This document shows positions 3,256-64,000 of a DNA stretch of 64,000 bases, piece after piece. The position numbers and the translations under genes were made by a program. Positions within the stretch are counted from its first letter, which is position 1. Each line of letters opens with the position of its first letter. The notes below the pieces were generated by a model. The model saw only the letters and a list, made by a program, of their open reading frames with translations. It ran no database searches and was not told the DNA's origin. The DNA is taken from assembly GCA_965203355.1 (NCBI GenBank), contig OZ241889.1:2560001-2624000 (forward strand), given 5' to 3'. Source of the stretch: Candidatus Latescibacterota bacterium (GTDB lineage: Bacteria; Latescibacterota; UBA2968; UBA8231).

Positions 3256-4218
3256 CTACAGCGCGACGACGCGTTCTTCTATGGCGGATTGGGTGGCCGC
3301 GTGCGTTACGGCTAAGGTCTTGACCGCTTCGGCGTAGGAGCAGCGAATGCCGCTAGCATCGCCGGTTTGTACGGCTTGGAGAAAGGCGCGATCTTGGGCT
3401 TGCGTTGGATTGTTGCCCAGTTCAACGACTTCTCGGCCGCTGGGGCGGTCGATGGTGAGCGCACCGGATGCGAGGCGCAGGACTTGGTTTTTCTGGTAGA
3501 GGTCTAAGCCTACGTGCCCGCCCGCGGAGAGCATACAGGCCGAGGTGATGCTGGCTACCGCGCCGCTTTGGAAGCGGAGGTTGGTGACCGAGGCGTCGTG
3601 GACATCGTAGTTGGGGACGTCTTCCATCAGGCCGGTGCGCGCCATGGCGTGGACGCTTTCGACCTCGCCGAGCAGGTAGCGGGCCAAATCGAAAATATGC
3701 GTGGTTTGCTCGACGATTTGGCCCCCGCTCTCGGCCAGTACCCGCCACCAAGACACCCCGGGCATGCCGCCCAGCCAAGAGCCAAGGGCAAACCCCACCG
3801 GCGCATCGCCGAGGAGTTTGATTGCTTTGGCGGTCGTGTCCATGTAGCGCCAGTGATAGCCCACGGCGCTGATTAGGTTTTGGGCGCGGAGGGCCGCTTC
3901 AACGGCGCGGGCTTGTTCTAGGGAAGTCGCCACAGGTTTTTCGACGAAAATGGGCAAGCCGCGCTCAATGGCCGCTAACTCGGGCTGGGCGTGGGCAAAA
4001 GGCGGCAGGCAGATATAGACCGCGTCGAGTGCCTCGCTGTCGTACAGCGCTTCGTAGTGGCTATAGGCCCGGCCCCCGTACTCGCTGGCCGCGGCGAGCG
4101 CCTTTTCTTCGACTACGTCGCAACAGGCAACCAGCTCGGCCTCGTCGAGTTGGGCGAGGGTGCGCAGATGGTGGTTGGCGATGCCGCCCGTGCCGACAAA
4201 GCCGATTTTAATCGCCAT
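3256..4218 (-). CDS. Gfo/Idh/MocA family oxidoreductase
   Basis: GFVGTGGIA, FVEKP, GGQIVEQTTHIFD. Confidence 0.9.
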   Translation of the reverse strand: MAIKIGFVGTGGIANHHLRTLAQLDEAELVACCDVVEEKALAAASEYGGRAYSHYEALYDSEALDAVYICLPPFAHAQPELAAIERGLPIFVEKPVATSLEQARAVEAALRAQNLISAVGYHWRYMDTTAKAIKLLGDAPVGFALGSWLGGMPGVSWWRVLAESGGQIVEQTTHIFDLARYLLGEVESVHAMARTGLMEDVPNYDVHDASVTNLRFQSGAVASITSACMLSAGGHVGLDLYQKNQVLRLASGALTIDRPSGREVVELGNNPTQAQDRAFLQAVQTGDASGIRCSYAEAVKTLAVTHAATQSAIEERVVAL

Positions 4219-4333: not shown

Positions 4334-5062
4334 ATGAACACAACGCAAAAAGGCCAACTCAGCGACTACAAGGTCCACTACAAGGCCGATGCCGAGGCAA
4401 TTGTCGATCCGCAAGCATTGGACCCGAGGCGTCGAGCCTCGGAAGAACGGCGACTGGAGACCCTCGTGCGCCTACTCGACTTGCACCGCGGCGAACGCGT
4501 CCTCGACATCGGGTGTGGATCGGGTTGGCTGGGGGCGCACTGCCAGCGCCGGGGGGCCCTAGTCTGTGCCATGGACATCGGCTGGGTAGGGGTGGCCGGT
4601 GCCAAGGCCCGCTTTGCGGAAGCAGCCTATCAGGTCGGCGATTTGTACTATCTCCCCTTTGCCGCCGAGTGTTTCGACGCGGTAGTGCTTTCCGAAGTGC
4701 TCGAACACCTCGAAGATATTGGCGCGGCCCTAGCGGAGGCGCGACGGGTGTTGCGCCCGCGAGGGCGGCTGGTGGTGAGTGTGCCGTACCGCGAGACCAT
4801 TATCGAGCACTTGTGTATCCACTGCAATAGGCTAACGCCAGCCCACGCGCATCTCCACCGCTTTGATGAGGAGACGCTCGCCGCCTATCTCCAAGGCGAG
4901 GGCTTTGAAATACGCGCGGTGCGGTTGACGACCAACAAACTGCTAGAATTGGCTGGGTGTGCTGGCTGGCCCTATGCCGCTTGGCACTTGGCCGATGCGC
5001 TTTTGAACAAGATCGTTCCCAAACCGGCCTTCCTTTGCATGTTGGGCGTCCGCCGCGACTGA
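4334..5062 (+). CDS. Class I SAM-dependent methyltransferase
   Basis: VLDIGCGSG, FDAVVLSEVLEHL, RRVLRPRGRL. Confidence 0.9.
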   Translation: MNTTQKGQLSDYKVHYKADAEAIVDPQALDPRRRASEERRLETLVRLLDLHRGERVLDIGCGSGWLGAHCQRRGALVCAMDIGWVGVAGAKARFAEAAYQVGDLYYLPFAAECFDAVVLSEVLEHLEDIGAALAEARRVLRPRGRLVVSVPYRETIIEHLCIHCNRLTPAHAHLHRFDEETLAAYLQGEGFEIRAVRLTTNKLLELAGCAGWPYAAWHLADALLNKIVPKPAFLCMLGVRRD

Positions 5063-5157
5063 GCCGTCGCCGCCGATCATCGACTGGGTTTTACCGCAAA
5101 TTCAATGATAGATACGGTGCTAAGCCGAGCGGCGTGGGCACTGTCAAGTTGGGTGCC

Positions 5158-6663
5158 ATGGCTGGACAGAATCGACAGGATCGAAGGGGGCGGCTGACGC
5201 GCAAGATCGGCGTTGTCGCTGCCGGGCGCGCGGCCAATACCGCCGGCATCCTCGCTGTTTATGCGCTGGTCGCCCGCGCTTGGACGCCGGAAGAATGCGG
5301 GCTTTTTGGCGCGGTCTGGCTCGTGGGCAATGCGTTGATCCCGGTGTTTTTGTGCGGGTTGCCTACGAGTTTACTCTACTTCTTTCCCCGGCGGGCCGCG
5401 CCGCGCTTGCTCGTCGGCCAAGTGATGCTGTGCTTGGCCGCATCGGGTTTGGCATTGGCCGGAAGCCTGTGGCTGTGGGGAGGGCCGTTGGCCGATGTGC
5501 TGGTGCAAGCGACCCGCGATGGCGAGCAGGTGGCCGCGTACCTGCTGTTGTTCCTGCCCTATCTCTTTGCGGCGGTCGCGGCCGGTGGGGGCGAAGCCGC
5601 CTTGGTGGCTGCCGATCGCGAGCACTATCTGGCTTGGCTGCAACTGGCCATGAGTGGGGCCTTAGTTGCCGGTGCGGGGGGGGCACTGGGGCTAGGGTGG
5701 ACGCCCGCGCAGGTGCTGGTGCTGTTTTCTGGGGTGGGCGTGTTGCGCTTGCTCGCCATCTGCTGGCTAGTGCGCTTGGCATTGGCCGGGGGGCGATGGT
5801 GGGGGTGGGAAGGGCTGGGTGAACTGATGCGCTATGCGCGCCCGGTTGGCTTCAACGACGCGGTAAATAGCCTCTCGCGCTACGTCGATCGCTTTGTGAT
5901 CTTGCACTTTTTCGCGGCTGGCACTTTCGCCGAATACCATTTCGGGGCCATTGAAGTGCCGATTAGCCTGCTGCTGTCGGCGGTGACATCCGTGTTGATC
6001 CCGGAGATTAGTCGGCTCTTTCAGGCGGACCGGCGCGCCGACATATTGGCATTGTGGCAGCGCGCGGTTTTGCGCTTGGCTTTGTTGGTGTTGCCGCTGG
6101 CGGCCTTTCTGCTCGCTTTTGCTGGACCGCTGATTGGCTGGCTCTTTCCAGAATACGACCGCTCGGCTTGGGTTTTCCGCATCTACCTATTGATGCTGCC
6201 GCTGCGCTGTGCCGCGTACAATCCGCTGCTGGTAGGCATAGGTAAGGCCCGCTGGGCGCTGTGGAGTAGCGTGGGGGACTTGTGCTGCAATATCGGCTTG
6301 AGTTGGGTGCTGATTAGCTACTTGCAGGGGGCGCACCCTGAGTGGGCCTTTCTCGGCCCGGCCGTGGCCACCACCGGGGCGACGTACTTGCAGGTAGCCT
6401 TCTTGTTGGCGGCGATTGGCTGGCACTTGCGCTGTGGCTTGCACCGGCTCTTGCCGTGGGGTCGCCTGCTGAAGACCAGCGCAAGGGTCGGAGCCGCGGC
6501 CGTGGTCAGCCGTTGGGTTAGTGCGGATGTGGGCGGCGATTTTTTGCAGGTGGTTGTAGGGGGGATATGCTTTGTGGTGCTGGCCGGCGTCGCGATTTGG
6601 GCCAACCTGCAAGACCGCGCGGAACTGACCCACACTTGGCGGGCGTTGACGCGGAGGCCTTAG
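5158..6663 (+). CDS. Wzx-like oligosaccharide flippase / polysaccharide biosynthesis protein
   Basis: Many hydrophobic helices, 'ELMRYARP...SRYVDRFVI' pattern of MOP flippases; start moved to ATG 5158. Confidence 0.75.
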   Translation: MAGQNRQDRRGRLTRKIGVVAAGRAANTAGILAVYALVARAWTPEECGLFGAVWLVGNALIPVFLCGLPTSLLYFFPRRAAPRLLVGQVMLCLAASGLALAGSLWLWGGPLADVLVQATRDGEQVAAYLLLFLPYLFAAVAAGGGEAALVAADREHYLAWLQLAMSGALVAGAGGALGLGWTPAQVLVLFSGVGVLRLLAICWLVRLALAGGRWWGWEGLGELMRYARPVGFNDAVNSLSRYVDRFVILHFFAAGTFAEYHFGAIEVPISLLLSAVTSVLIPEISRLFQADRRADILALWQRAVLRLALLVLPLAAFLLAFAGPLIGWLFPEYDRSAWVFRIYLLMLPLRCAAYNPLLVGIGKARWALWSSVGDLCCNIGLSWVLISYLQGAHPEWAFLGPAVATTGATYLQVAFLLAAIGWHLRCGLHRLLPWGRLLKTSARVGAAAVVSRWVSADVGGDFLQVVVGGICFVVLAGVAIWANLQDRAELTHTWRALTRRP

Positions 6664-6947
6664 CCGCTGAGCAAGGCGCTGGCGATCGCCTCCCACTCTT
6701 CGGGCAGCGACGCCTTGCTGTGGGGCTTTTGCGCCCGCTGGTACCAATAGCCGGCGTTGTTTTCGTCGCCTTCGACCCGATGTAAATAAGCATGGACCCA
6801 AGCCCCGATGGGATCGGGCGTTTGCTGGGCTAGCTCGTGGGCTTTGTCCCATTGACCCTTGGCATCGTACCAGAGGGCTTGCAGGGCTTGGGAGGTCTCC
6901 GGCGGGGTTTGTTTTTGCAGGCTTAGTTTGAAGGCTTTGAGGTCCAT
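6660..6947 (-). CDS. Conserved small hypothetical protein
   Basis: ALWYDAKGQWDKAH...AWVHAYLHRVEGDENNAGYWY resembles a widespread uncharacterised family. Confidence 0.8.
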   Translation of the reverse strand: MDLKAFKLSLQKQTPPETSQALQALWYDAKGQWDKAHELAQQTPDPIGAWVHAYLHRVEGDENNAGYWYQRAQKPHSKASLPEEWEAIASALLSG

Positions 6948-7097
6948 AAGGGTCGGCTCCAATCGTCGGGTGCGTCCCCTTAATATAGGCTATCGTAGTG
7001 CGGCCATCCACCGGGGGATCCGCCTTGCCCAAAAAGTGCGTCGCCCTCTATATTTAAAACTTTTAACTTGATGCGAAACAAGGAATTGAGCAAAGAC

Positions 7098-8390
7098 ATG
7101 CCAGTAGGAGTGGGATTGATTGGTTTGGGCACGGTCGGCAGCGGCGTGGTCGAGCTGTTGCAGAACGCGCCCGCGTCGTTGCGGCGGCGCAAGCACGTGG
7201 ATTTTGCATTGCGGAGCGCGGCGGTGCGCGACTTGGACAAGCCGCGCAGTCTCGCCATCGCACCGGAGCTGTTGACGGCAGACGCCGGCGCGGTCGTCGC
7301 CGACCCGCAGGTGCAACTGGTGGTGGAATTGACGGGTGCGCCCCCGGCTTTTGAGTGGGTGAGCGAGGCCCTGCGACAAGGCAAGGATGTGGTGACGGCC
7401 AACAAGGCCCTGCTTGCCGAGCGGGGTGAGGAGCTTTTTGAACTGGCACTGGCCAATGGAGCAGATTTGATGTTTGAAGCCAGCGTCGCGGCCGGCATCC
7501 CCATCATCCGCTCGTTGCGCAACGGCTTGGTCGCCAATCGGGTCGAGTCCCTGTACGGCATTCTCAACGGCACTACGAACTACATGCTCACGCGCATGAG
7601 TCGCGGCGCGGGCGACTACGCCGCCGTCCTCAAAGAAGCCCAAGCCCAAGGCTACGCCGAACCGGACCCCACTATGGACGTGAGCGGCATGGACGCCGCG
7701 CAGAAGTTGGCCATCCTCTGCCGCATTGCCTTCCACTGCACGGGCACGGGCCGCGACGTATTTTGCGAAGGCATCGAGCCGATCGAGAGCCGGGATATTG
7801 AATACGCCCGCGAGCTGGGGTATGCGATCAAGTTGCTGGCTATTGCCAAGCAACAGGACGGGCGCGTCGAGGCCCGGGTGCATCCGGCCATGGTGCCAAA
7901 AGACGCGCTATTGGCCAACATCCACGATGAGTTCAACGCCATTCAGGTGCAGGGGTCTGCGGTGGGGCCGCAAGTGTTTTCTGGCCGCGGTGCTGGGCGA
8001 CTGCCCACGGCCAGCGCTGTGGTGGCGGATATGGTCGAGCTGGTCGAGCGCAAGGCCGCCGGTGCGAGCACGTCCATTGGCGACATGGTTTTGGGCGAGG
8101 ACGCCGTCTCGGTTGTGCCCATTGAGAATGTGCCGATGCGCTACTTTATGCGCGTCTTAGTCCGCGACCAGCCCGGGGTGCTCGCTGGTATCTCGCGCAT
8201 TTTGGCCGAGGAGCGCATCAGCATTGCCTCGGTCATCCAAAAGGAGCGCGACTTTGAGGGCGGCTTTGTGCCGCTGGTCATCGTCACGCACGAGGCGCGC
8301 GAAGCCGCGATGCAGCGGGCGCAGCAGGCCGCGGCCACACTCGATGCGGTACAAGGGGCGGTCAAGCTCATCCGCATGGAGGATCTCTAA
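7098..8390 (+). CDS. hom: Homoserine dehydrogenase with C-terminal ACT domain
   Basis: GLGTVGSG, VVTANKA, FEASVAAGIP, GILNGTTNY, GYAEPDP, GAGRLPTASAV, DQPGVLAGIS. Confidence 0.95.
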   Translation: MPVGVGLIGLGTVGSGVVELLQNAPASLRRRKHVDFALRSAAVRDLDKPRSLAIAPELLTADAGAVVADPQVQLVVELTGAPPAFEWVSEALRQGKDVVTANKALLAERGEELFELALANGADLMFEASVAAGIPIIRSLRNGLVANRVESLYGILNGTTNYMLTRMSRGAGDYAAVLKEAQAQGYAEPDPTMDVSGMDAAQKLAILCRIAFHCTGTGRDVFCEGIEPIESRDIEYARELGYAIKLLAIAKQQDGRVEARVHPAMVPKDALLANIHDEFNAIQVQGSAVGPQVFSGRGAGRLPTASAVVADMVELVERKAAGASTSIGDMVLGEDAVSVVPIENVPMRYFMRVLVRDQPGVLAGISRILAEERISIASVIQKERDFEGGFVPLVIVTHEAREAAMQRAQQAAATLDAVQGAVKLIRMEDL

Positions 8391-8501
8391 CGTGCGCTAC
8401 GTGGTGTTGGTGCCCGACGGGGCGGCCGACTATCCGCTCGACGAACTGGACGGGCAGACGCCGTTGGAGGTGGCCGCTACGCCCTGCATGGATCGCTTGG
8501 C
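8380..8501 (+). repeat. 122-bp direct repeat, copy 1 (end of hom plus 5' end of apgM)
   Basis: Matches 10912-11033 except T/C at 8471/11003. Confidence 0.95.
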
Positions 8502-8535
8502 CAGAGAGGAGAATCTTTATGTTGAAACAATCTGA
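8392..8535 (+). pseudogene. Duplicated 5' stub of apgM running into the insert
   Basis: VRYVVLVPDGAADYPLDELDGQTPLEVAATPCMDRLARE then ENLYVETI*; overlaps the next start codon. Confidence 0.85.
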
Positions 8536-9781
8536 TGTGTTACACTCATGCTGTGATGGGGATAACTGGATTAGAGAAGCTCTGTGTAAAACGGAACCAT
8601 ATATATACGAAGAAGTAGAAAAGTCTTTGGCAACCAAACTATTAGATAAAATTTATCTTGATGCTGATGCTATCGAAAAACCCCTCCACCTAGCGGCAGC
8701 TTTTGACTTGCTAGTAGCAGCAGAGTACTACCGCACTGTCGCTTCTGAAGGATGGGGGCATTGCCTCGATAAAGGTTGTTCGCTTCTATTCTATCCGTAT
8801 GTCAATGCCTGTCCAAGATGTTTACTCCAAGGCCAATTTGTGTTTCACAAGGCCAATAAACCGAAGTCTGGTTCGATTGGTTTAGCAACCTCAAAACTTT
8901 TAGCTCTTTTTTTGCAAAAACTGCTTCATAAGAAGGGGTCTCCCATTGAGGTCGTGAAGGGAAATGAGCCAGTAGATTTGGTTTTTAGAGATAACTCATC
9001 GGGTTCCGAAGTGGTCTTCTTTGCAGAGATTAAAGCAGCACCTCTTTTCACGTTACCATTGGCTATTAAAGACCAGAGATCGGCTACAGCAGTGGAGCAT
9101 TCAATGGAAACTACTCAGCATGAGGAGATATATTGTACAGGACTTTACGATTCTGAAATAGGCATATATTTACCATACAAAAAGGATGAGGTTACTTGGG
9201 GCGGACAGATTTTCCCATTAGGAAAAAAGGTTGATCAAGAAGATGAGGCATGGGCATACAATGGATTAATTAATCTTTTAGACTCAGATCCTTCATTTAT
9301 AGAGGGTTATTTTGAATTCTGGAAAGAGGCATTTGAATGCTATGGTAGCCGCCTTAAGAAAAACCCATACTGGTTTACTAATGCCTGTGGAGGTCCTGAT
9401 CCAAGACCTATTACTTGGCCAAAAAGAAAAGGAACAGGTTATGAGACTATTTCTGACGGCAAAACAAGTGTGGGTATGGATAGGACAGATGATCTTAAAA
9501 AAGCTATCTATCAAGTATTGAAGATTGGGACTGCTGGTAAGCCCACGTGTACCTTTAAGTATAAAGTGGGCATTGTGACGAACATTCCCGCAGTTAGGCA
9601 TCATGGAGAGTACATAGAGCCAGTTAAAGATATAATTTGGGCAAGGGACGAATCAGCATCTGCTCAATACGTTGGTGATTTAGCTAAAGATAAAGGGCTG
9701 TTTAATCTCTTTGATGGTATAGTTTCTTTGACTGAGGTTTCAGCTCGTGATGAATGGATTAAGGCTACATTCACTTTTTGA
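8519..9781 (+). CDS. Putative type II restriction endonuclease (PD-(D/E)xK-like, Cys cluster)
   Basis: AT-rich; EPVDLVF...FAEIKAA motif, CPRC; directly upstream of a C5 methylase; SD GAGGAG. Confidence 0.65.
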   Translation: MLKQSDVLHSCCDGDNWIREALCKTEPYIYEEVEKSLATKLLDKIYLDADAIEKPLHLAAAFDLLVAAEYYRTVASEGWGHCLDKGCSLLFYPYVNACPRCLLQGQFVFHKANKPKSGSIGLATSKLLALFLQKLLHKKGSPIEVVKGNEPVDLVFRDNSSGSEVVFFAEIKAAPLFTLPLAIKDQRSATAVEHSMETTQHEEIYCTGLYDSEIGIYLPYKKDEVTWGGQIFPLGKKVDQEDEAWAYNGLINLLDSDPSFIEGYFEFWKEAFECYGSRLKKNPYWFTNACGGPDPRPITWPKRKGTGYETISDGKTSVGMDRTDDLKKAIYQVLKIGTAGKPTCTFKYKVGIVTNIPAVRHHGEYIEPVKDIIWARDESASAQYVGDLAKDKGLFNLFDGIVSLTEVSARDEWIKATFTF

Positions 9782-9797
9782 TATGAGGAGGTATATT

Positions 9798-10922
9798 GTG
9801 GTGGAAGTTTTTAATCATCAACCCCGTAAGGTTGGAATGGAAGTCCAACGTAGGATCAATGCACTAGGTATTGGGCAGAAAATGCAAGATTTGCCAGAGG
9901 AACTATGGCATAAAAGCTTCCGTTACTATGTCAAAGAAGATCCTAGTCGCAAAGGGGGACCAAATCTGAGAATGATAAGACTTGATCCAGACCAGCCTTC
10001 TCTAACAGTAACAGGTTATATTTTCAATAAGTTTGTTCATCCATATGAGGACCGATTTATTACGCCGAGAGAAGCTGCGAGATTACAAGGATTTCCTGAT
10101 GACCTAGAATTTAAAGGGGTGCTCACTAGTGTTCAGAGTCAAGTCGGTGATGCAGTCCCAATCGAACTCGGTAGATCCATCTTTGAGTCACTAATGATTC
10201 TTTTAAAGAAACATTGGCCGAAGAAGAAGATTTTCAAAACTCTTAGTTTGTTTAGTGGAGCAGGTGGATTAGATATAGCCTCAGAGAGAATAAAATTTAA
10301 AGATAATAGTCATTTTGAGCTAGTCGCTTGTATTGAAATTGAAGAGGATCGCTGCGATACACTAAAAGGATATTTTAAAGATAAAGTAAAAGTATTTAAC
10401 GTAGATATTTCAGAAGTAACTACTGACACTTTACTTAGCACATGCAAAGTGTCAAAAGATGACATTTGGGTAATTTATGGCGGTCCTCCTTGCCAGTCTT
10501 TTAGCCAAGCAGGAAAACAAAAAGGAACCGACGATTCAAGAGGAATATTGGTTTTTGAATTTATACGTTTTCTAAAGGAAATAAATCCTCCTTACTTTGT
10601 CATGGAAAATGTGGCAAATATAAATGGTATTGAGAAGGGGTTTTTACTTAAAAAAATAGTACAGAAAATGAACAAAATAGGTTATAATGTCGAGAGTGGT
10701 ATACTAAATTCCGTAGATTATGGTAACGCACAGAAGAGAAGGAGATTTATCTGTTTGGGTTCAAAAAAAGGATGGCCAATAGCTAAATTGCCTTTACCGA
10801 CGCACTGTGAACAGGAAAATTTGCTTGGGTTACCACTTTTCAAAACAGTAGGTGAAGCGTTAGAGGGATTACCTTCACCAGAGTGCGAGAAAATTGCCCT
10901 AGAAAATGGGAAGGATCTCTAA
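9798..10922 (+). CDS. Circularly permuted DNA (cytosine-5) methyltransferase
   Basis: Motifs IX/X (RFITPREAARLQGFPD, QVGDAVP) precede motifs I (SLFSGAGGLD), IV (GGPPCQSFS), VI (MENV) and VIII (QKRRRFI); GAGGAGG before GTG. Confidence 0.9.
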   Translation: MVEVFNHQPRKVGMEVQRRINALGIGQKMQDLPEELWHKSFRYYVKEDPSRKGGPNLRMIRLDPDQPSLTVTGYIFNKFVHPYEDRFITPREAARLQGFPDDLEFKGVLTSVQSQVGDAVPIELGRSIFESLMILLKKHWPKKKIFKTLSLFSGAGGLDIASERIKFKDNSHFELVACIEIEEDRCDTLKGYFKDKVKVFNVDISEVTTDTLLSTCKVSKDDIWVIYGGPPCQSFSQAGKQKGTDDSRGILVFEFIRFLKEINPPYFVMENVANINGIEKGFLLKKIVQKMNKIGYNVESGILNSVDYGNAQKRRRFICLGSKKGWPIAKLPLPTHCEQENLLGLPLFKTVGEALEGLPSPECEKIALENGKDL

Positions 10923-11033
10923 CGTGCGCTACGTGGTGTTGGTGCCCGACGGGGCGGCCGACTATCCGCTCGACGAACTGGACGGGCAGACGCCGTTGGA
11001 GGCGGCCGCTACGCCCTGCATGGATCGCTTGGC
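10912..11033 (+). repeat. 122-bp direct repeat, copy 2
   Basis: Matches 8380-8501; supplies the methylase stop codon and the apgM start. Confidence 0.95.
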
Positions 11034-12114
11034 GCGCGAAGGGGCCGGGGGCTTGGTACAGATGATCCCGGCCGAGCGGCACCCAGGCAGCGACATCGGC
11101 AACCTCGAAATTTTCGGCTACGACAGCCGCATGTACTACACGGGCCGGGCGCCGTTGGAAGCCGCGAGCATGGGGGTCGATTTGGGCGCCGACGGGGTGG
11201 CTTTCCGCCTGAACCTGATCTACGGAGAGGACGACGTGCTGGTCGATTACAGCGCCGGCCACATCGCCAGCCAAGAAGCGGCTGAGCTGGTGGGGGCCTT
11301 GGCGGCTGAGTTGGGCGGGCCGACTTTGCGCTTCTATCCCGGGGTCGGCTATCGCCACTTGTTGGTGTGGGATCGCGGCCCAGAAGCCGTGGAAACCTAT
11401 CCGCCGCACGACATCATGGGCGAGTCCATGGCCGCGCATGAGCCGACGGGCGTCGGGGCCGATAAAATCTGCGCTCTTATGGACGCGGCCGGTCCCATTC
11501 TCGCGGCCTCACCGGTCAATGCCGCCCGCACCGCCCGCGGCGAGCGGCCAGCCAACGCGATATGGCTCTGGGGGGCCGGGCGCGCCCTGCGGTTGGCTTC
11601 TCTGTCGGAGCGCTACGGCTTGCAGGGCGGCGTTATCTCGGCTGTTGACTTGGTGCGCGGGATCGGCAAAAGCGCGGGCTTAGAGGTCATTGAGGTGCCC
11701 GGTATTACCGGATACCTCGATACCAACTACGAAGGCAAGGCCGAATACGCGCTGGCCGCCTTGCAGCACGCTGATTTTGTCTATGTCCACGTCGAGGCTC
11801 CTGACGAAGCCGGGCACAACGGCGACTCACGGGCCAAGGTGCAGGCCATTGAGGATTTTGATGCCCGCGTCGTCGGCCCGATTTTGGCGGGACTAGCGTC
11901 GATGGGGCCGCATCGAGTGCTGCTGACTCCCGACCACCGCACGCCCATTGCGCGGCGCACCCACAGCCGCGAGCCCGTGCCCTTTGTGTTGTGGGGGACG
12001 GGTATTGAGGCCGACTCGATGCAAGCCTATGGGGAGCGGGCGGCCGAGTGGGGTAGTATGCAGGTGGAGCACGGACATGTATTGATGGATTATCTAACGG
12101 AGAAATGCAGGTGA
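10924..12114 (+). CDS. apgM: Cofactor-independent phosphoglycerate mutase, ApgM family (proposed alternative homoserine kinase)
   Basis: PDGAAD, PGSDIGNL, GRAPLEAASMG, HVEAPDEAGH, TPDHRTP...TH. Confidence 0.88.
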   Translation: MRYVVLVPDGAADYPLDELDGQTPLEAAATPCMDRLAREGAGGLVQMIPAERHPGSDIGNLEIFGYDSRMYYTGRAPLEAASMGVDLGADGVAFRLNLIYGEDDVLVDYSAGHIASQEAAELVGALAAELGGPTLRFYPGVGYRHLLVWDRGPEAVETYPPHDIMGESMAAHEPTGVGADKICALMDAAGPILAASPVNAARTARGERPANAIWLWGAGRALRLASLSERYGLQGGVISAVDLVRGIGKSAGLEVIEVPGITGYLDTNYEGKAEYALAALQHADFVYVHVEAPDEAGHNGDSRAKVQAIEDFDARVVGPILAGLASMGPHRVLLTPDHRTPIARRTHSREPVPFVLWGTGIEADSMQAYGERAAEWGSMQVEHGHVLMDYLTEKCR

Positions 12115-13133
12115 CCAAAGCGTACAACGTAGCTATTATGGGCGCGACCGGCGCCGTAGGACAGGTGTTGTTAGAAATACTCGCCGAGCGCGCATTTCCC
12201 GTCGGCGAGTTGCGGCTGTTGGCCTCAGCCCGCTCGGCGGGCCGCTCCATTTCCTTTGATGGCCGCTCGATTCAGGTGCAGGAGTTAAAGGAGGATTCCT
12301 TTGGCGGCGTGGATATCGTCTTGGCTTCGGCCGGGGGCCACTTGAGCAAGCGGTTTAACCCGCACGCGGTCGCTGCGGGCGCGGTGGTCGTCGATAACAC
12401 GTCGGCCTATCGCCTGGACCCGGACGTGCCGCTGGTGGTGCCCGAGATCAACCCCGAGGATTTGGCGGCGCATCGCGGCATCATCGCCAATCCGAATTGT
12501 TCGACGATCATCATGGACCTGGCGATCTGGCCGCTCTATCAGCGGCGGCGGATCAAGCGCATCGTGGTCTCGACCTATCAGGCCGTTAGTGGCGCGGGGG
12601 CGCGGGCCATGGAGGAGTTAGAGACGCAAACGCGGCAGGTGCTCGCCGGGCAGGAGGCTGAACCGGCGGAATTCCCGCACCCGATCGCCTTTAACTTGTT
12701 TTCGCACGACTCGGCTGTTGGGCCGGAAGGGTATTGCGAAGAAGAACTAAAAATGATGCGCGAGACCCGCAAGATGTTCCACGACGACGCGCTGCAGATC
12801 TCGGCCACGACCATCCGCGTACCCGTGCTGCGGGCGCATTCCGAGGCGATCAACGTGGAGTTTGCCGAACCCTTTCCGGCAGCCGAGGCCGAAGCTGTTT
12901 TGGCGCAGGCCGCGGGCGTGCGGATAGTACACGATCCCGAGCAGAATTATTTCCCCATGCCGATTGAAGCCTCCGGCTGCGACGAGGTACTGGTCGGGCG
13001 CATTCGCCAGGATATTTCGCGGCCCGACGGCACTGGGCTGGACTTGTGGGTCAGCGGCGATCAGTTGCGCAAGGGCGCGGCCCTAAACGCCGTACAAATC
13101 GCCGAGCATCTCATCGCCCGCCAATTGCTATAA
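12105..13133 (+). CDS. asd: Aspartate-semialdehyde dehydrogenase
   Basis: GATGAVG, VVDNTSAYR, IANPNCST, STYQAVSGAG, DQLRKGAALNAVQIAE. Confidence 0.96.
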   Translation: MQVTKAYNVAIMGATGAVGQVLLEILAERAFPVGELRLLASARSAGRSISFDGRSIQVQELKEDSFGGVDIVLASAGGHLSKRFNPHAVAAGAVVVDNTSAYRLDPDVPLVVPEINPEDLAAHRGIIANPNCSTIIMDLAIWPLYQRRRIKRIVVSTYQAVSGAGARAMEELETQTRQVLAGQEAEPAEFPHPIAFNLFSHDSAVGPEGYCEEELKMMRETRKMFHDDALQISATTIRVPVLRAHSEAINVEFAEPFPAAEAEAVLAQAAGVRIVHDPEQNYFPMPIEASGCDEVLVGRIRQDISRPDGTGLDLWVSGDQLRKGAALNAVQIAEHLIARQLL

Positions 13134-13147
13134 CGAGGGAGACCGCC

Positions 13148-13957
13148 ATGGATGTCTTGAGCAGGGCAGAACTGGATTTCTTTGCCGAACAGGGATACGT
13201 GGTCGCACGCCAAGTGATCGACCGCGACCAAGCCGAGCGCACCGGGCGCGCGGTGTGGGCATTTGCCGGCCTGGACCCAGCCGATCCCGCGACTTGGTAT
13301 CGAGCGGACCGGCGCGGCATCATGGTCGAGATTTATCACCACCAAACCATGTGGGACAATCGCACGGCTCCTCGGGTTCACCAAGCCTTTAGCCAGATTT
13401 GGGGCACGGACAAGCTATGGGTCAGCCACGACCGAGCCAGCATCAGTCCGCCAGCCTTAGACAAAGAGGCACCCGAACACAATCTGCACTGGGATGCCTC
13501 CTTGGAGCAGCGTCCTTTGTCCTTTGGCGTGCAGGGTGTGCTCTATCTGAGCGACACGCCAGCCGAGCAGGGGGCCTTTGTCTGCGTACCGGGATTCCAC
13601 CAGCGTCTAGAGGCGTGGCTCGACCAATTGCCGGCGGGGGCCAACCCCGGCGAGCAAGATCTGCTGGCCTTGGGGACGCGGCGCATTGGTGCTGAAGCGG
13701 GCGACTTGATTATTTGGCGCACGGCCTTGCCGCATACGGCGAGCGTCAATCGCGGCGACGCGCCTCGCGTGGTGCAGTACATCACCATGAGTCCGGCCGG
13801 CGATGGCGCAGAGGCGCGGCGGTTGCACCGCGACTTTTGGCAGCAACGCTTGTCCGGGTTGGGTCGCTACGCCAAGGAGCGCGAGCACTACGAGGAAAAG
13901 ACGGCGGAGTTGACGAGTGTGGGGCGGAAGCTGGCTGGGGTGGATTCTTGGGATTGA
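13148..13957 (+). CDS. Phytanoyl-CoA dioxygenase family (Fe/2OG) protein
   Basis: FFAEQGYVV, LHWD, VQGVLYLSDT, AGDLIIWRTALPH. Confidence 0.85.
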   Translation: MDVLSRAELDFFAEQGYVVARQVIDRDQAERTGRAVWAFAGLDPADPATWYRADRRGIMVEIYHHQTMWDNRTAPRVHQAFSQIWGTDKLWVSHDRASISPPALDKEAPEHNLHWDASLEQRPLSFGVQGVLYLSDTPAEQGAFVCVPGFHQRLEAWLDQLPAGANPGEQDLLALGTRRIGAEAGDLIIWRTALPHTASVNRGDAPRVVQYITMSPAGDGAEARRLHRDFWQQRLSGLGRYAKEREHYEEKTAELTSVGRKLAGVDSWD

Positions 13958-30183: not shown

Positions 30184-31125
30184 ATGCCCCAACGCAAACT
30201 GCCCATCGGCATTCAGACCTTCCGCGAGCTCCGTGAAGAGAACTACTACTACGTCGATAAGACCGCCTACATCGGCCGGCTGCTCGACGAGGGGAAGCAC
30301 TATTTCCTGTCGCGCCCGCGGCGTTTCGGCAAGAGCCTGTTCTTGGATACGTGCAAGGAACTGTTCGAGGGCAATGAGTCGCTCTTCGCGGGACTTTACA
30401 TCCACGACCGCTGGGATTGGTCGGTTTGCCGTCCCGTCCTGCGGCTCAGCCTGTACCAGCGCCGCGTTAGTTCCCTGGAGCTCGGTGAGATGTTCGGCAG
30501 CGACGAACTGCTATCGACCTTCGACATCGATCATATCGCGACCGAGGCCCTGCTGTTCCAGACCGGCTACCTGACGATAACAGACGAGGAGGACGTTGGC
30601 GGCAGAGTCCTCTATCGCCTCGGCTATCCCAACCGGGAGGTGCGACAGAGTCTCAACGAGAGCCTGCTGCGCTACTTGGTGCAGGATTCGACGCGACAGA
30701 TGGCCAACAGCGTACGGCTCTACCGGCTGTTGGAGGCCCGCGACTTCGCCGGGCTGGAGATGCTATTCCACGCCTTTTTCGCCAGCATTCCCTATGCGTG
30801 GTACACCAACAATGACATGGCGCATTACGAGGGGTACTATGCGAGTGTATTTTACTCGTATTTCGCCGCGTTGGGGCTGGATGTTCGGGTGGAGGATAGT
30901 ACCAGTCAAGGACGGCTGGATATGGCGGTTTTATTCGACAGCACCGTCTATTTGTTCGAGTTCAAGGTGGTCGAGCTGTCGTCGGCGGGGGCGGCGTTGG
31001 GGCCGTTGAAGGAGCGGGGGTATGCGGATAAGTATCGGGGGCTGGGGCAACCTATTTACTTGATCGGCGTGGAGTTTAGCCGGGATACGCGCAATGTGGC
31101 CGGGTTTGGGGTGGAGCCAGCGTGA
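30184..31125 (+). pseudogene. AAA-ATPase-like + PD-(D/E)xK nuclease protein with an in-frame internal deletion
   Basis: [24 protein letters not shown]; no Walker B; [20 protein letters not shown]...FEFK. Confidence 0.7.
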
Positions 31126-62706: not shown

Positions 62707-62782
62707 GGATTAAGTCGGCTCAACCATTGTTTTGTCTTCTAAAACATACGTGAGTTATATTTATATGAGGAGGATTCAGGTG

Positions 62783-63073
62783 ATGTCGAAATTGTCGGCG
62801 GGGCTAAAGAATAAGCAAGCCTATCTCATGTATTGGGCGCTAGTTTGCGCCCTCTGCGTAGGAGTGGGGGCTTGCTCGACAGATACCTTGATGGCCCCCA
62901 AGAGCAATGCACAGAGCGCCAGAGAATTGGAGGACTCAGGCGATGTCGAAATCATCGGCGAGATTGAAGAAGTCGAGGAGGACTCAGGCGATGTCGAAAT
63001 CATCGGCGAGATTGAAGAAGTCGAGGAGAAATTAGGCGATGCACAAATCACCGGAGAAATCGAGGAGGACTGA
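62783..63073 (+). CDS. Short lipoprotein with an acidic tandem-repeat tail
   Basis: GAGGAGG SD; MSKLSAGLKNKQAYLMYWALVCALCVGVGAC lipobox; EDSGDVEIIGEIEEV repeats. Confidence 0.6.
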   Translation: MSKLSAGLKNKQAYLMYWALVCALCVGVGACSTDTLMAPKSNAQSARELEDSGDVEIIGEIEEVEEDSGDVEIIGEIEEVEEKLGDAQITGEIEED

Positions 63074-63105
63074 GGCGATGTCGAAATCATCGGCGAGATT
63101 GAAGA
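62930..63105 (+). repeat. Tandem ~48-bp repeats (about four copies, third degenerate and shorter)
   Basis: Unit GAGGACTCAGGCGATGTCGAAATCATCGGCGAGATTGAAGAA(GTCGAG). Confidence 0.9.
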
Positions 63106-64000
63106 ATAAGCAAGCCTATCTCATGTATTGGGTGCTAGTTTGTGCCCTCTGCGTAGGAGTGGGGGCTTGCTCGGATAGTGCTCTGATACAGCCAGAAGCC
63201 AGCGACAGCGGCGCGGCGTCTTTCGTTATCAGCAGCAAGGTCGTCGCTGCGACTTTGTCGCGTGTTGAGGTGGTTATAACGGGCTCAAATATGGATGAGA
63301 TACGTCAGGATCTGACCATAGATGAAGACACGATTACTGGGGTTGTGCAAAACATACCCGCCGGGAACGAACTCCGTTTTACCCTGAATGGGTACGATTC
63401 CTCTGACAACTTAGTCTATAGTGGGTCGGCAATGGCCGATGTGGTTGCCGGAGAGCAGGTAACGGTCAGAATTACAATGAAAAAGCAGGAAGACAAGATA
63501 TATTGGTTCAATGCCGGTAGCGACAGTATTGGTTTTTATCGCGCTAACCTCGACGGCTCCAAAGAGGAAAAAATCTTAGGCTTCACGTGCTGCTTTTCTT
63601 TAGGAGGACTGGTTATAGACGTGAGCAGCCGCAAGATGTATTGGACTTACCGCTCCCCCGGCAGGCCCGACCGCATTCTACGTAACAACCTCGATGGCTC
63701 ACAGATCGAAAACCTTGTTATCGAGCTCTCTGATCCATGGGGACTGGCTTTAGATGTGGGCGGTGGCAAGATGTATTGGGTAGATGATGGCACGAACAAG
63801 ATTCAACGTGCCAACCTCCTTGATGGCTCACAAGTCGAAGACCTCGTCAGCGTCGTCCATCATCCAAGGAGACTGGCTTTAGATGTGGGCGGTGGCAAGA
63901 TGTATTGGACAGAGCATAGCTCGCGCAAGATTCAACGCGCCAACCTTGATGGCTCACAAGTCGAAGACCTCGTCAGCGGTCTGAGTCGGCCAGAGGGACT
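63078..64000 (+). CDS. Lipoprotein with LDL-receptor class B (YWTD) repeats, 3' end outside window; absent from the ORF track
   Basis: Manual translation open to window end: MSKSSARLKNKQAYLMYWVLVCALCVGVGAC...LALDVGGGKMYW..KIQRANLDGSQVEDLV repeated. Confidence 0.88.
   Translation, partial: MSKSSARLKNKQAYLMYWVLVCALCVGVGACSDSALIQPEASDSGAASFVISSKVVAATLSRVEVVITGSNMDEIRQDLTIDEDTITGVVQNIPAGNELRFTLNGYDSSDNLVYSGSAMADVVAGEQVTVRITMKKQEDKIYWFNAGSDSIGFYRANLDGSKEEKILGFTCCFSLGGLVIDVSSRKMYWTYRSPGRPDRILRNNLDGSQIENLVIELSDPWGLALDVGGGKMYWVDDGTNKIQRANLLDGSQVEDLVSVVHHPRRLALDVGGGKMYWTEHSSRKIQRANLDGSQVEDLVSGLSRPEG

Follow-up and report, generated by a model that had tools for sequence, protein, structure and literature searches.

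A probably old restriction-modification insertion with long target duplication between hom and apgM of a Latescibacterota genome

The 64,000-nt window analysed here (the whole stretch introduced above, from contig OZ241889.1 of a Candidatus Latescibacterota genome) carries a restriction-modification (R-M) gene pair lodged between hom and apgM, two genes of a hom-apgM-asd run in an operon for amino-acid biosynthesis. Probably, this is a real R-M insertion accompanied by a long target duplication, it is old, and host recombination has since homogenised the two target copies and gained or lost the cassette without leaving a scar.

The element consists of two direct repeats of 122 nt (8380-8501 and 10912-11033, spacing 2532) that differ at a single position (a private T at 8471 in the left copy, C at 11003 in the right one) and that enclose a foreign insert of 2,410 bp (8502-10911) with 39% GC, compared with 61% in the remaining window. 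This corresponds to the AT-rich two-gene insert announced by the original prediction, which had also recognised the repeats as host sequence; indeed, gene models show that they contain the final codons of hom with its stop, followed by the first 37 codons of apgM. Between 5000 and 15000, the next-longest family of direct repeats reaches at most 31 nt. The 122-nt repeat is found in two copies in the window and in two copies in the whole genome of the second carrier G001 (see below), indicating that it is no dispersed multicopy element. Two long open reading frames (ORFs), both on the forward strand, make up the insert: a putative Type II restriction endonuclease gene of 420 codons (8519-9781) and a gene for a circularly permuted, M.BssHII-like C5-cytosine methyltransferase of 374 aa (9798-10922). 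Neither has an integrase or transposase match in Pfam or NCBIfam, as expected from the claim that no mobility gene is present, and since both flanks are coding the target is not a tRNA, a point for which no tRNA scan was made.

Relatives were compared starting from G001 (locus L001), a Latescibacterota metagenome-assembled genome (MAG; OZ220721.1) that contains the same gene pair at the same junctions with ca. 90% DNA identity over the locus. Among 75 genomes from the family of G001, 66 match the end of hom, and the loci of the best 30 (G001 and 29 others) were inspected. In all 29 the target is single and the alignment runs unbroken over the reconstructed empty site, with 20 of these sites being 88-94% identical; the single-copy site that had been proposed as a check is thus present throughout. 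The nuclease occurs in one of the 75 family genomes, namely G001, which is also the only one of five genomes checked to have a full-length close match to the methyltransferase; matches to C5 methyltransferases in general number 3 to 11 in each of five relatives. A third carrier, strain X1 (ca. 2.5% divergent), has the insert at the same junctions, which are therefore common to three lineages, the window, X1 and G001, the latter being ca. 10% divergent. A search for the junction pattern in JGI metagenomes returned one contig covering the right side only, a JGI metagenome scan with the nuclease as query found no relative, and a plasmid search gave one match at 31%. An orthologue in another Latescibacterota genome (L041) sits at another locus, has a different methyltransferase end and no flanking repeat; there, a low-GC island (4428-10788 of that locus) holds the R-M pair together with other defence-looking genes.

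The structure was further examined in short-read data, by aligning Logan contigs from 4 of 16 listed runs on positions 6500-13500. In X13, possibly the sample of the window itself, a single contig of 2,501 nt covers 8441-10941, extending 61 nt over the left junction and entering the right copy by 30 nt, one short of the 31-nt rule used for bridging. Depths were 77.7 in the left flank, 149.9 in the repeat, 73.8 in the insert and 66 in the right flank, with no differing letters, a pattern as expected for a single insert between two repeat copies. In X1, which comes from a different strain and another study, a single contig covers 8478-10992 and reaches 81 nt into the right copy. The junction mapping that had been suggested as a test against mis-assembly is thus in favour of the insert, in contigs and depths alike. 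No connection bypassing the insert was seen among the contigs; because contigs stop at the repeat, they are unable to reveal empty-site or circle molecules. The X1 insert has a depth of 421, 1.8 times that of its flanks (234 and 226), while the shared repeat contig has 335, below the expectation for two and for three copies; the extra depth could be due to tandem amplification, with GC bias or a second carrier being as likely. For X15 and X16, depths were too uneven to be used.

The age of the insertion can be approached by comparing the insert with its surroundings. Between the window and X1, differences amount to 58 of 2515 nt in the insert and to 57 of 1961 and 54 of 2485 nt in the flanks, so that the insert, diverging like its flanks, is older than the split between the two strains. 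Between the window and G001, DNA identity is 94% for the nuclease gene, 89% for the methyltransferase gene and 88-93% for host genes. As to the 122-nt copies, the two copies of the window differ at one site, the left copies of the window and G001 at 9, the left copy of G001 and the empty site of G029 at 3, and the two copies of G001 at 7, with a median of 9 differences between empty sites. The non-functional left copy thus follows the alleles of its own host, which requires gene conversion, unequal crossing-over or re-integration. Near-identity of the repeats is the result of later homogenisation and no measure of age, with the reservation that the 7 differences between the G001 copies show homogenisation not to be uniform. 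Dating such insertions by the near-identity of their flanking repeats is thereby precluded, a 99% repeat being found here around an insert common to species 10% apart. Among the papers listed by a literature search, none dealt, by title and beginning of the abstract, with the homogenisation of repeats flanking R-M genes, which does not imply absence from print.

Repeat boundaries also differ among carriers. In G001 the repeat starts three bases further to the left and ends slightly further to the right than in the window, and contig boundaries in X1 imply, as judged from where contigs end, that the copies are identical at repeat positions 52-128 and differ earlier. Right-hand ends are accordingly variable (122, ca. 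127 and at least 128). Judged from G001 and X1, the original duplication was presumably longer than 122 bp, ca. 125-133 bp.

Carriers are scattered among non-carriers. In a tree built from 3.6 kb of flanking sequence (26 rows), the window and the empty G043 are sisters (100/100), as are G001 and the empty G029 (99/99), and a clade uniting the two carriers is rejected (approximately unbiased test, p=0.0002); over an 18-kb stretch elsewhere, G043 is again closest to the window by a small margin (91-92% vs 86-91% for the others). Two histories may explain such a pattern, a lateral return of the cassette to one and the same site or inheritance combined with clean excisions, the first being slightly favoured and the second needing at least four excisions (in G043, G028, G029 and G036). 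Lateral entry is favoured by the low synonymous divergence of the nuclease between the window and G001 (24 of 361 codons, against 469 of 2570 when nine host genes are taken together; Fisher p 2e-9) and by the finding that GCGCGC, the predicted recognition site (see below), is undepleted in the genus. The tree is derived from one 3.6-kb locus with which the 18-kb stretch is in weak agreement. Several observations speak against lateral entry: the flanks contain no tract common to the window and G001, the methyltransferase is at host-level divergence (76 of 332 synonymous codons, synonymous divergence dS 0.46), and an argE-like host gene (15 of 264) is as low as the nuclease. The last two render the divergence argument for transfer weak. 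Either history requires host recombination at the repeats, so that the part of the original prediction invoking recombination between them gains support, indirectly, from this patchy distribution, its tandem amplification having the equivocal counterpart described for X1.

In the sequence of events proposed here, an R-M cassette would have entered the hom-apgM junction and duplicated slightly more than 122 bp of target, after which ordinary homologous recombination of the host would act on the two copies, making them alike within a genome, and recombination between the copies would add or remove the cassette scarlessly. We consider it possible, as a tentative extension, that a cassette devoid of recombinase passed from one species to another and inserted again at the same site, with its duplicated target as sole homology, for instance in the form of an excised circle carrying a single copy of the repeat. 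If true, such re-entry would supply evidence from nature for release and re-infection, a stage in the virus-like life cycle that has been proposed for R-M systems, and the 1.8-fold insert depth of X1 could be the amplified state of the cassette.

The nature of the cargo was deduced from both of its genes. The methyltransferase matches PF00145 (E 2e-63) and its motif order is permuted, with the recognition region and motifs IX-X ahead of I-VIII; Pfam positions 1-168 align to residues 146-329 and the second stretch of the match is N-terminal. This order has been described for M.BssHII and a few others (PMC5944983) and, by eye, 88 of 109 residues of the recognition region plus motif IX are identical to M.BssHII as given in supplement S5 of that paper, the portion drawn upon here. 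In the same supplementary material, M.Ski73ORF33040P is matched by locus L053, which has a homologue of the window nuclease; the possible link from the nuclease to R.BssHII runs indirectly through this entry (PMC5944983). Nuclease homologues were found at 193 genome loci, the best 80 of which were scanned. A permuted methyltransferase lies directly behind the nuclease homologue in 67 of them, L053 included, in agreement with the proposed R-M pair. The remaining 13 (L009, L011, L012, L017, L019, L022-L025, L029, L030, L040 and L047) display a SPPY motif downstream, which we take to signal an amino-methyltransferase partner. In the 67 loci with a permuted methyltransferase, GCGCGC, the recognition site of BssHII, is the second most depleted among the 64 hexamer palindromes (observed/expected ratio, O/E, 0.18), and it ranks 12 of 64 in the 13 loci with another partner (O/E 0.40). 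In the latter, the most depleted palindrome is ACGCGT (2 seen vs 20 expected), a hint at a MluI-like specificity branch.

A BssHII-like Type II system with GCGCGC specificity is therefore a good prediction for the cargo, as far as sequence comparison goes: the methyltransferase would protect GCGCGC and the nuclease would cut it when unmethylated. Weighing against this specificity, the depletion was pooled over related genomes, further GC palindromes are low too, and in the host GCGCGC ranks only 34 of 64 in the window and 44 of 64 in empty relatives. Many other hexamer palindromes are strongly avoided in the window (seen/expected: GTGCAC 0/14, GTCGAC 2/37, CTCGAG 3/28, AAGCTT 0/9, CAGCTG 1/12), which would suggest that R-M systems have been present over a long time.

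The nuclease gene has no match in Pfam or NCBIfam, and no named homologue was found among the best 120 of the 691 homologues retrieved by sequence search. Residues P151, D153, E170 and K172 are invariant across 30 aligned sequences. A structure model (pLDDT 82) gave as best VIA-align rows Bse634I (Z 6.4, root-mean-square deviation 4.3, 172 aligned), PspGI (Z 6.3), AgeI, Kpn2I and Cfr10I, all with Z below 8, and Foldseek against the PDB returned nothing at E 0.001. With a modest Z of about 6, the model suggests a PD-(D/E)XK-like fold. Based on its PD and EXK residues, on this nuclease-like fold and on the linkage to the methyltransferase, the first gene is a putative restriction enzyme partner. 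The model would thus propose a fold where none had been assigned in 2008 to the likely prototype of this nuclease family, BssHII being listed as of unknown fold, in Table 1 of Orlowski and Bujnicki 2008 (PMC2441816).

Besides L001, eight of the 80 loci have candidate direct repeats and were inspected. In L007, from a Chloroflexi MAG, an insert of 2,485 bp with the same R-M family and 45% GC in DNA of 63-65% GC is bordered by perfect 33-bp repeats (5916-5948 and 8434-8466) duplicating the end of the gene that lies upstream. From its sequence organisation, this is likely a second, independent long target duplication, the only such case among the inspected loci; in the loci of nine relatives inspected for an empty site, the downstream gene was in no case adjacent. 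In L031, from a Methanoplasma MAG, the R-M pair lies between 81-bp repeats (88% identity; 4087-4174 and 6930-7010), with GCGCGC beside the left copy and four copies of the repeat in the genome. Three cyanobacterial repeats around family members resemble dispersed elements by appearance. Longer repeats (759, 938 and 325 bp, at 69%, 98% and 92%, respectively, and three copies of an 87-bp gene end) were seen at L056, L069, L024 and L025, and L013 was also among the loci with candidate flanking repeats.

Alternative explanations were weighed against these data. That a contaminant contig was joined to the host through a repeated k-mer is suggested by the length of the repeat, which is near common assembly k values; such an artefact is extremely improbable given that independent short-read contigs and depths agree with the structure, that G001, another species assembled separately, shows the identical one, and that the methyltransferase frame runs into the repeat. 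A recent de novo insertion in the window lineage, with repeats alike because they are young, would be in line with the single mismatch in 122 nt, with the closest relative G043 being empty and with an insert GC still at 39%. The original prediction had leaned to this reading, which has to be given up in view of the X1 and G001 comparisons: X1 has the insert, its junctions and an insert divergence equal to that of the flanks, and G001 shares insert and junctions with the nuclease and methyltransferase identities given above. Arrival from a close unsampled carrier is conceivable, yet it would amount to re-entry without a new duplication, and a recent origin is accordingly rated as quite unlikely.

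An old insertion handled by homologous recombination was also set against explanations involving a dedicated enzyme. A trans-acting site-specific recombinase that uses the 122 bp as attachment core, or the remnant of a larger island, could explain why exactly the same junctions occur in two non-sister species; this is held to be unlikely because no recombinase is encoded in the insert, none of the 29 inspected relatives has other cargo at the site, and the variable right-hand repeat ends fit homology-based events better than a fixed core. Self-targeted entry, in which the target was cleaved at its right-hand end by the nuclease, at a site of its own, and the cassette was inserted during repair of the break, is raised by a GCGCGC hexamer at 11032-11037 that straddles the right boundary of the right copy, a placement this close to one or other repeat end (within about 5 nt) having a 1.9% probability by chance, as well as by its presence at the same codon pair in 2 of 9 distant relatives and by the GCGCGC abutting the flanking repeat of L031. 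Among close relatives, the site is confined to the window genome: all 20 close empty sites, the right copy of G001 and the one JGI contig read GCC-CGC, and both left copies seen have C there. In addition, the L031 repeat, with its four genome copies, is a dispersed one, the perfect 33-bp duplication of L007 lacks the site, and the original duplication extended to the right of 11033. Self-targeting is hence considered improbable, and the hexamer looks like a coincidence.

The setting of the insertion within the host genes is as follows. The homoserine dehydrogenase gene hom (7068-8390, forward strand; NF004976 above cut-off) is intact, its last codons and stop being inside the left repeat, and so is apgM (10924-12114, forward strand; cofactor-independent phosphoglycerate mutase family, NF003242 and TIGR00306 above cut-off), whose working start is in the right one; both were left whole because the hom stop as well as the apgM start are included in the duplicated segment. 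A truncated apgM frame of 47 codons (8392-8535, forward strand) begins in the left copy and overlaps the start of the nuclease gene, and in the left copy of G001 this frame is interrupted by two 1-nt insertions that are either real or assembly errors. At the other end, the last codons and the stop of the methyltransferase come from the right repeat copy, the gene terminating on the duplicated hom stop in the window and in G001 alike. Further downstream on the same strand is asd (12105-13133), encoding aspartate-semialdehyde dehydrogenase. All these genes are co-oriented and a sequence scan detected no terminator-like site at either end of the insert, so that operon read-through is plausible and the cassette may plausibly be transcribed as part of the hom-apgM-asd run; promoter-like sites (9 vs 4.4±2.3 in shuffled sequences) were not used as evidence.

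Elsewhere in the window, an ORF at 30184-31125 has multicopy homologues in relatives, compared with which it is apparently shortened internally. Finally, a 112-nt repeat (62767-62878 and 63062-63173) occurs with 90% identity, and a third partial copy within 63606-63978 precedes an internally repetitive ORF that continues beyond the window.

Both the kind of event and the type of enzyme are already known, and the finding itself is ordinary. Insertion of R-M genes with long target duplication was described by Nobusato et al. 2000, as cited in PMC2853133, and the class was defined by Furuta, Abe and Kobayashi 2010 (PMC2853133), Table 3 of which reports repeats of 25-423 bp from many phyla with many Type IIP systems. 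In the sections of that paper relied upon here, repeats are said to often cover a start or stop codon, and insertion into operon-like structures occurs. The present element is in keeping with the three defining features taken from these sections, and so with the known process to which it had been assigned: it comprises only R and M genes (the R putative) in less than 20 kb, has no mobility gene or tRNA target, and is flanked by a repeat of more than 30 bp that is single in relatives. It differs from the class in its new host group, the Latescibacterota, and in having repeat copies that follow host alleles. Post-segregational killing is established for some Type II systems, according to citations in PMC2853133; by analogy it would be plausible here, with 54 GCGCGC sites in 61.6 kb. 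The same sections state that release and re-infection by R-M systems are without experimental evidence, a gap on which the present case bears indirectly. The genus, for which many assemblies exist and in which two carriers stand beside empty sister species, offers a test case for R-M cassettes cycling at one site by host recombination alone. As for the enzymes, the likeness to BssHII lies in the permuted order of the C5 methyltransferase and in its 88 of 109 identical residues, the difference in motif X, which in the Latescibacterota proteins reads GD in place of GN. As for the event, the comparisons of Furuta 2010 were made between pairs of genomes, whereas here one insertion is followed in two non-sister species, each with an empty sister.

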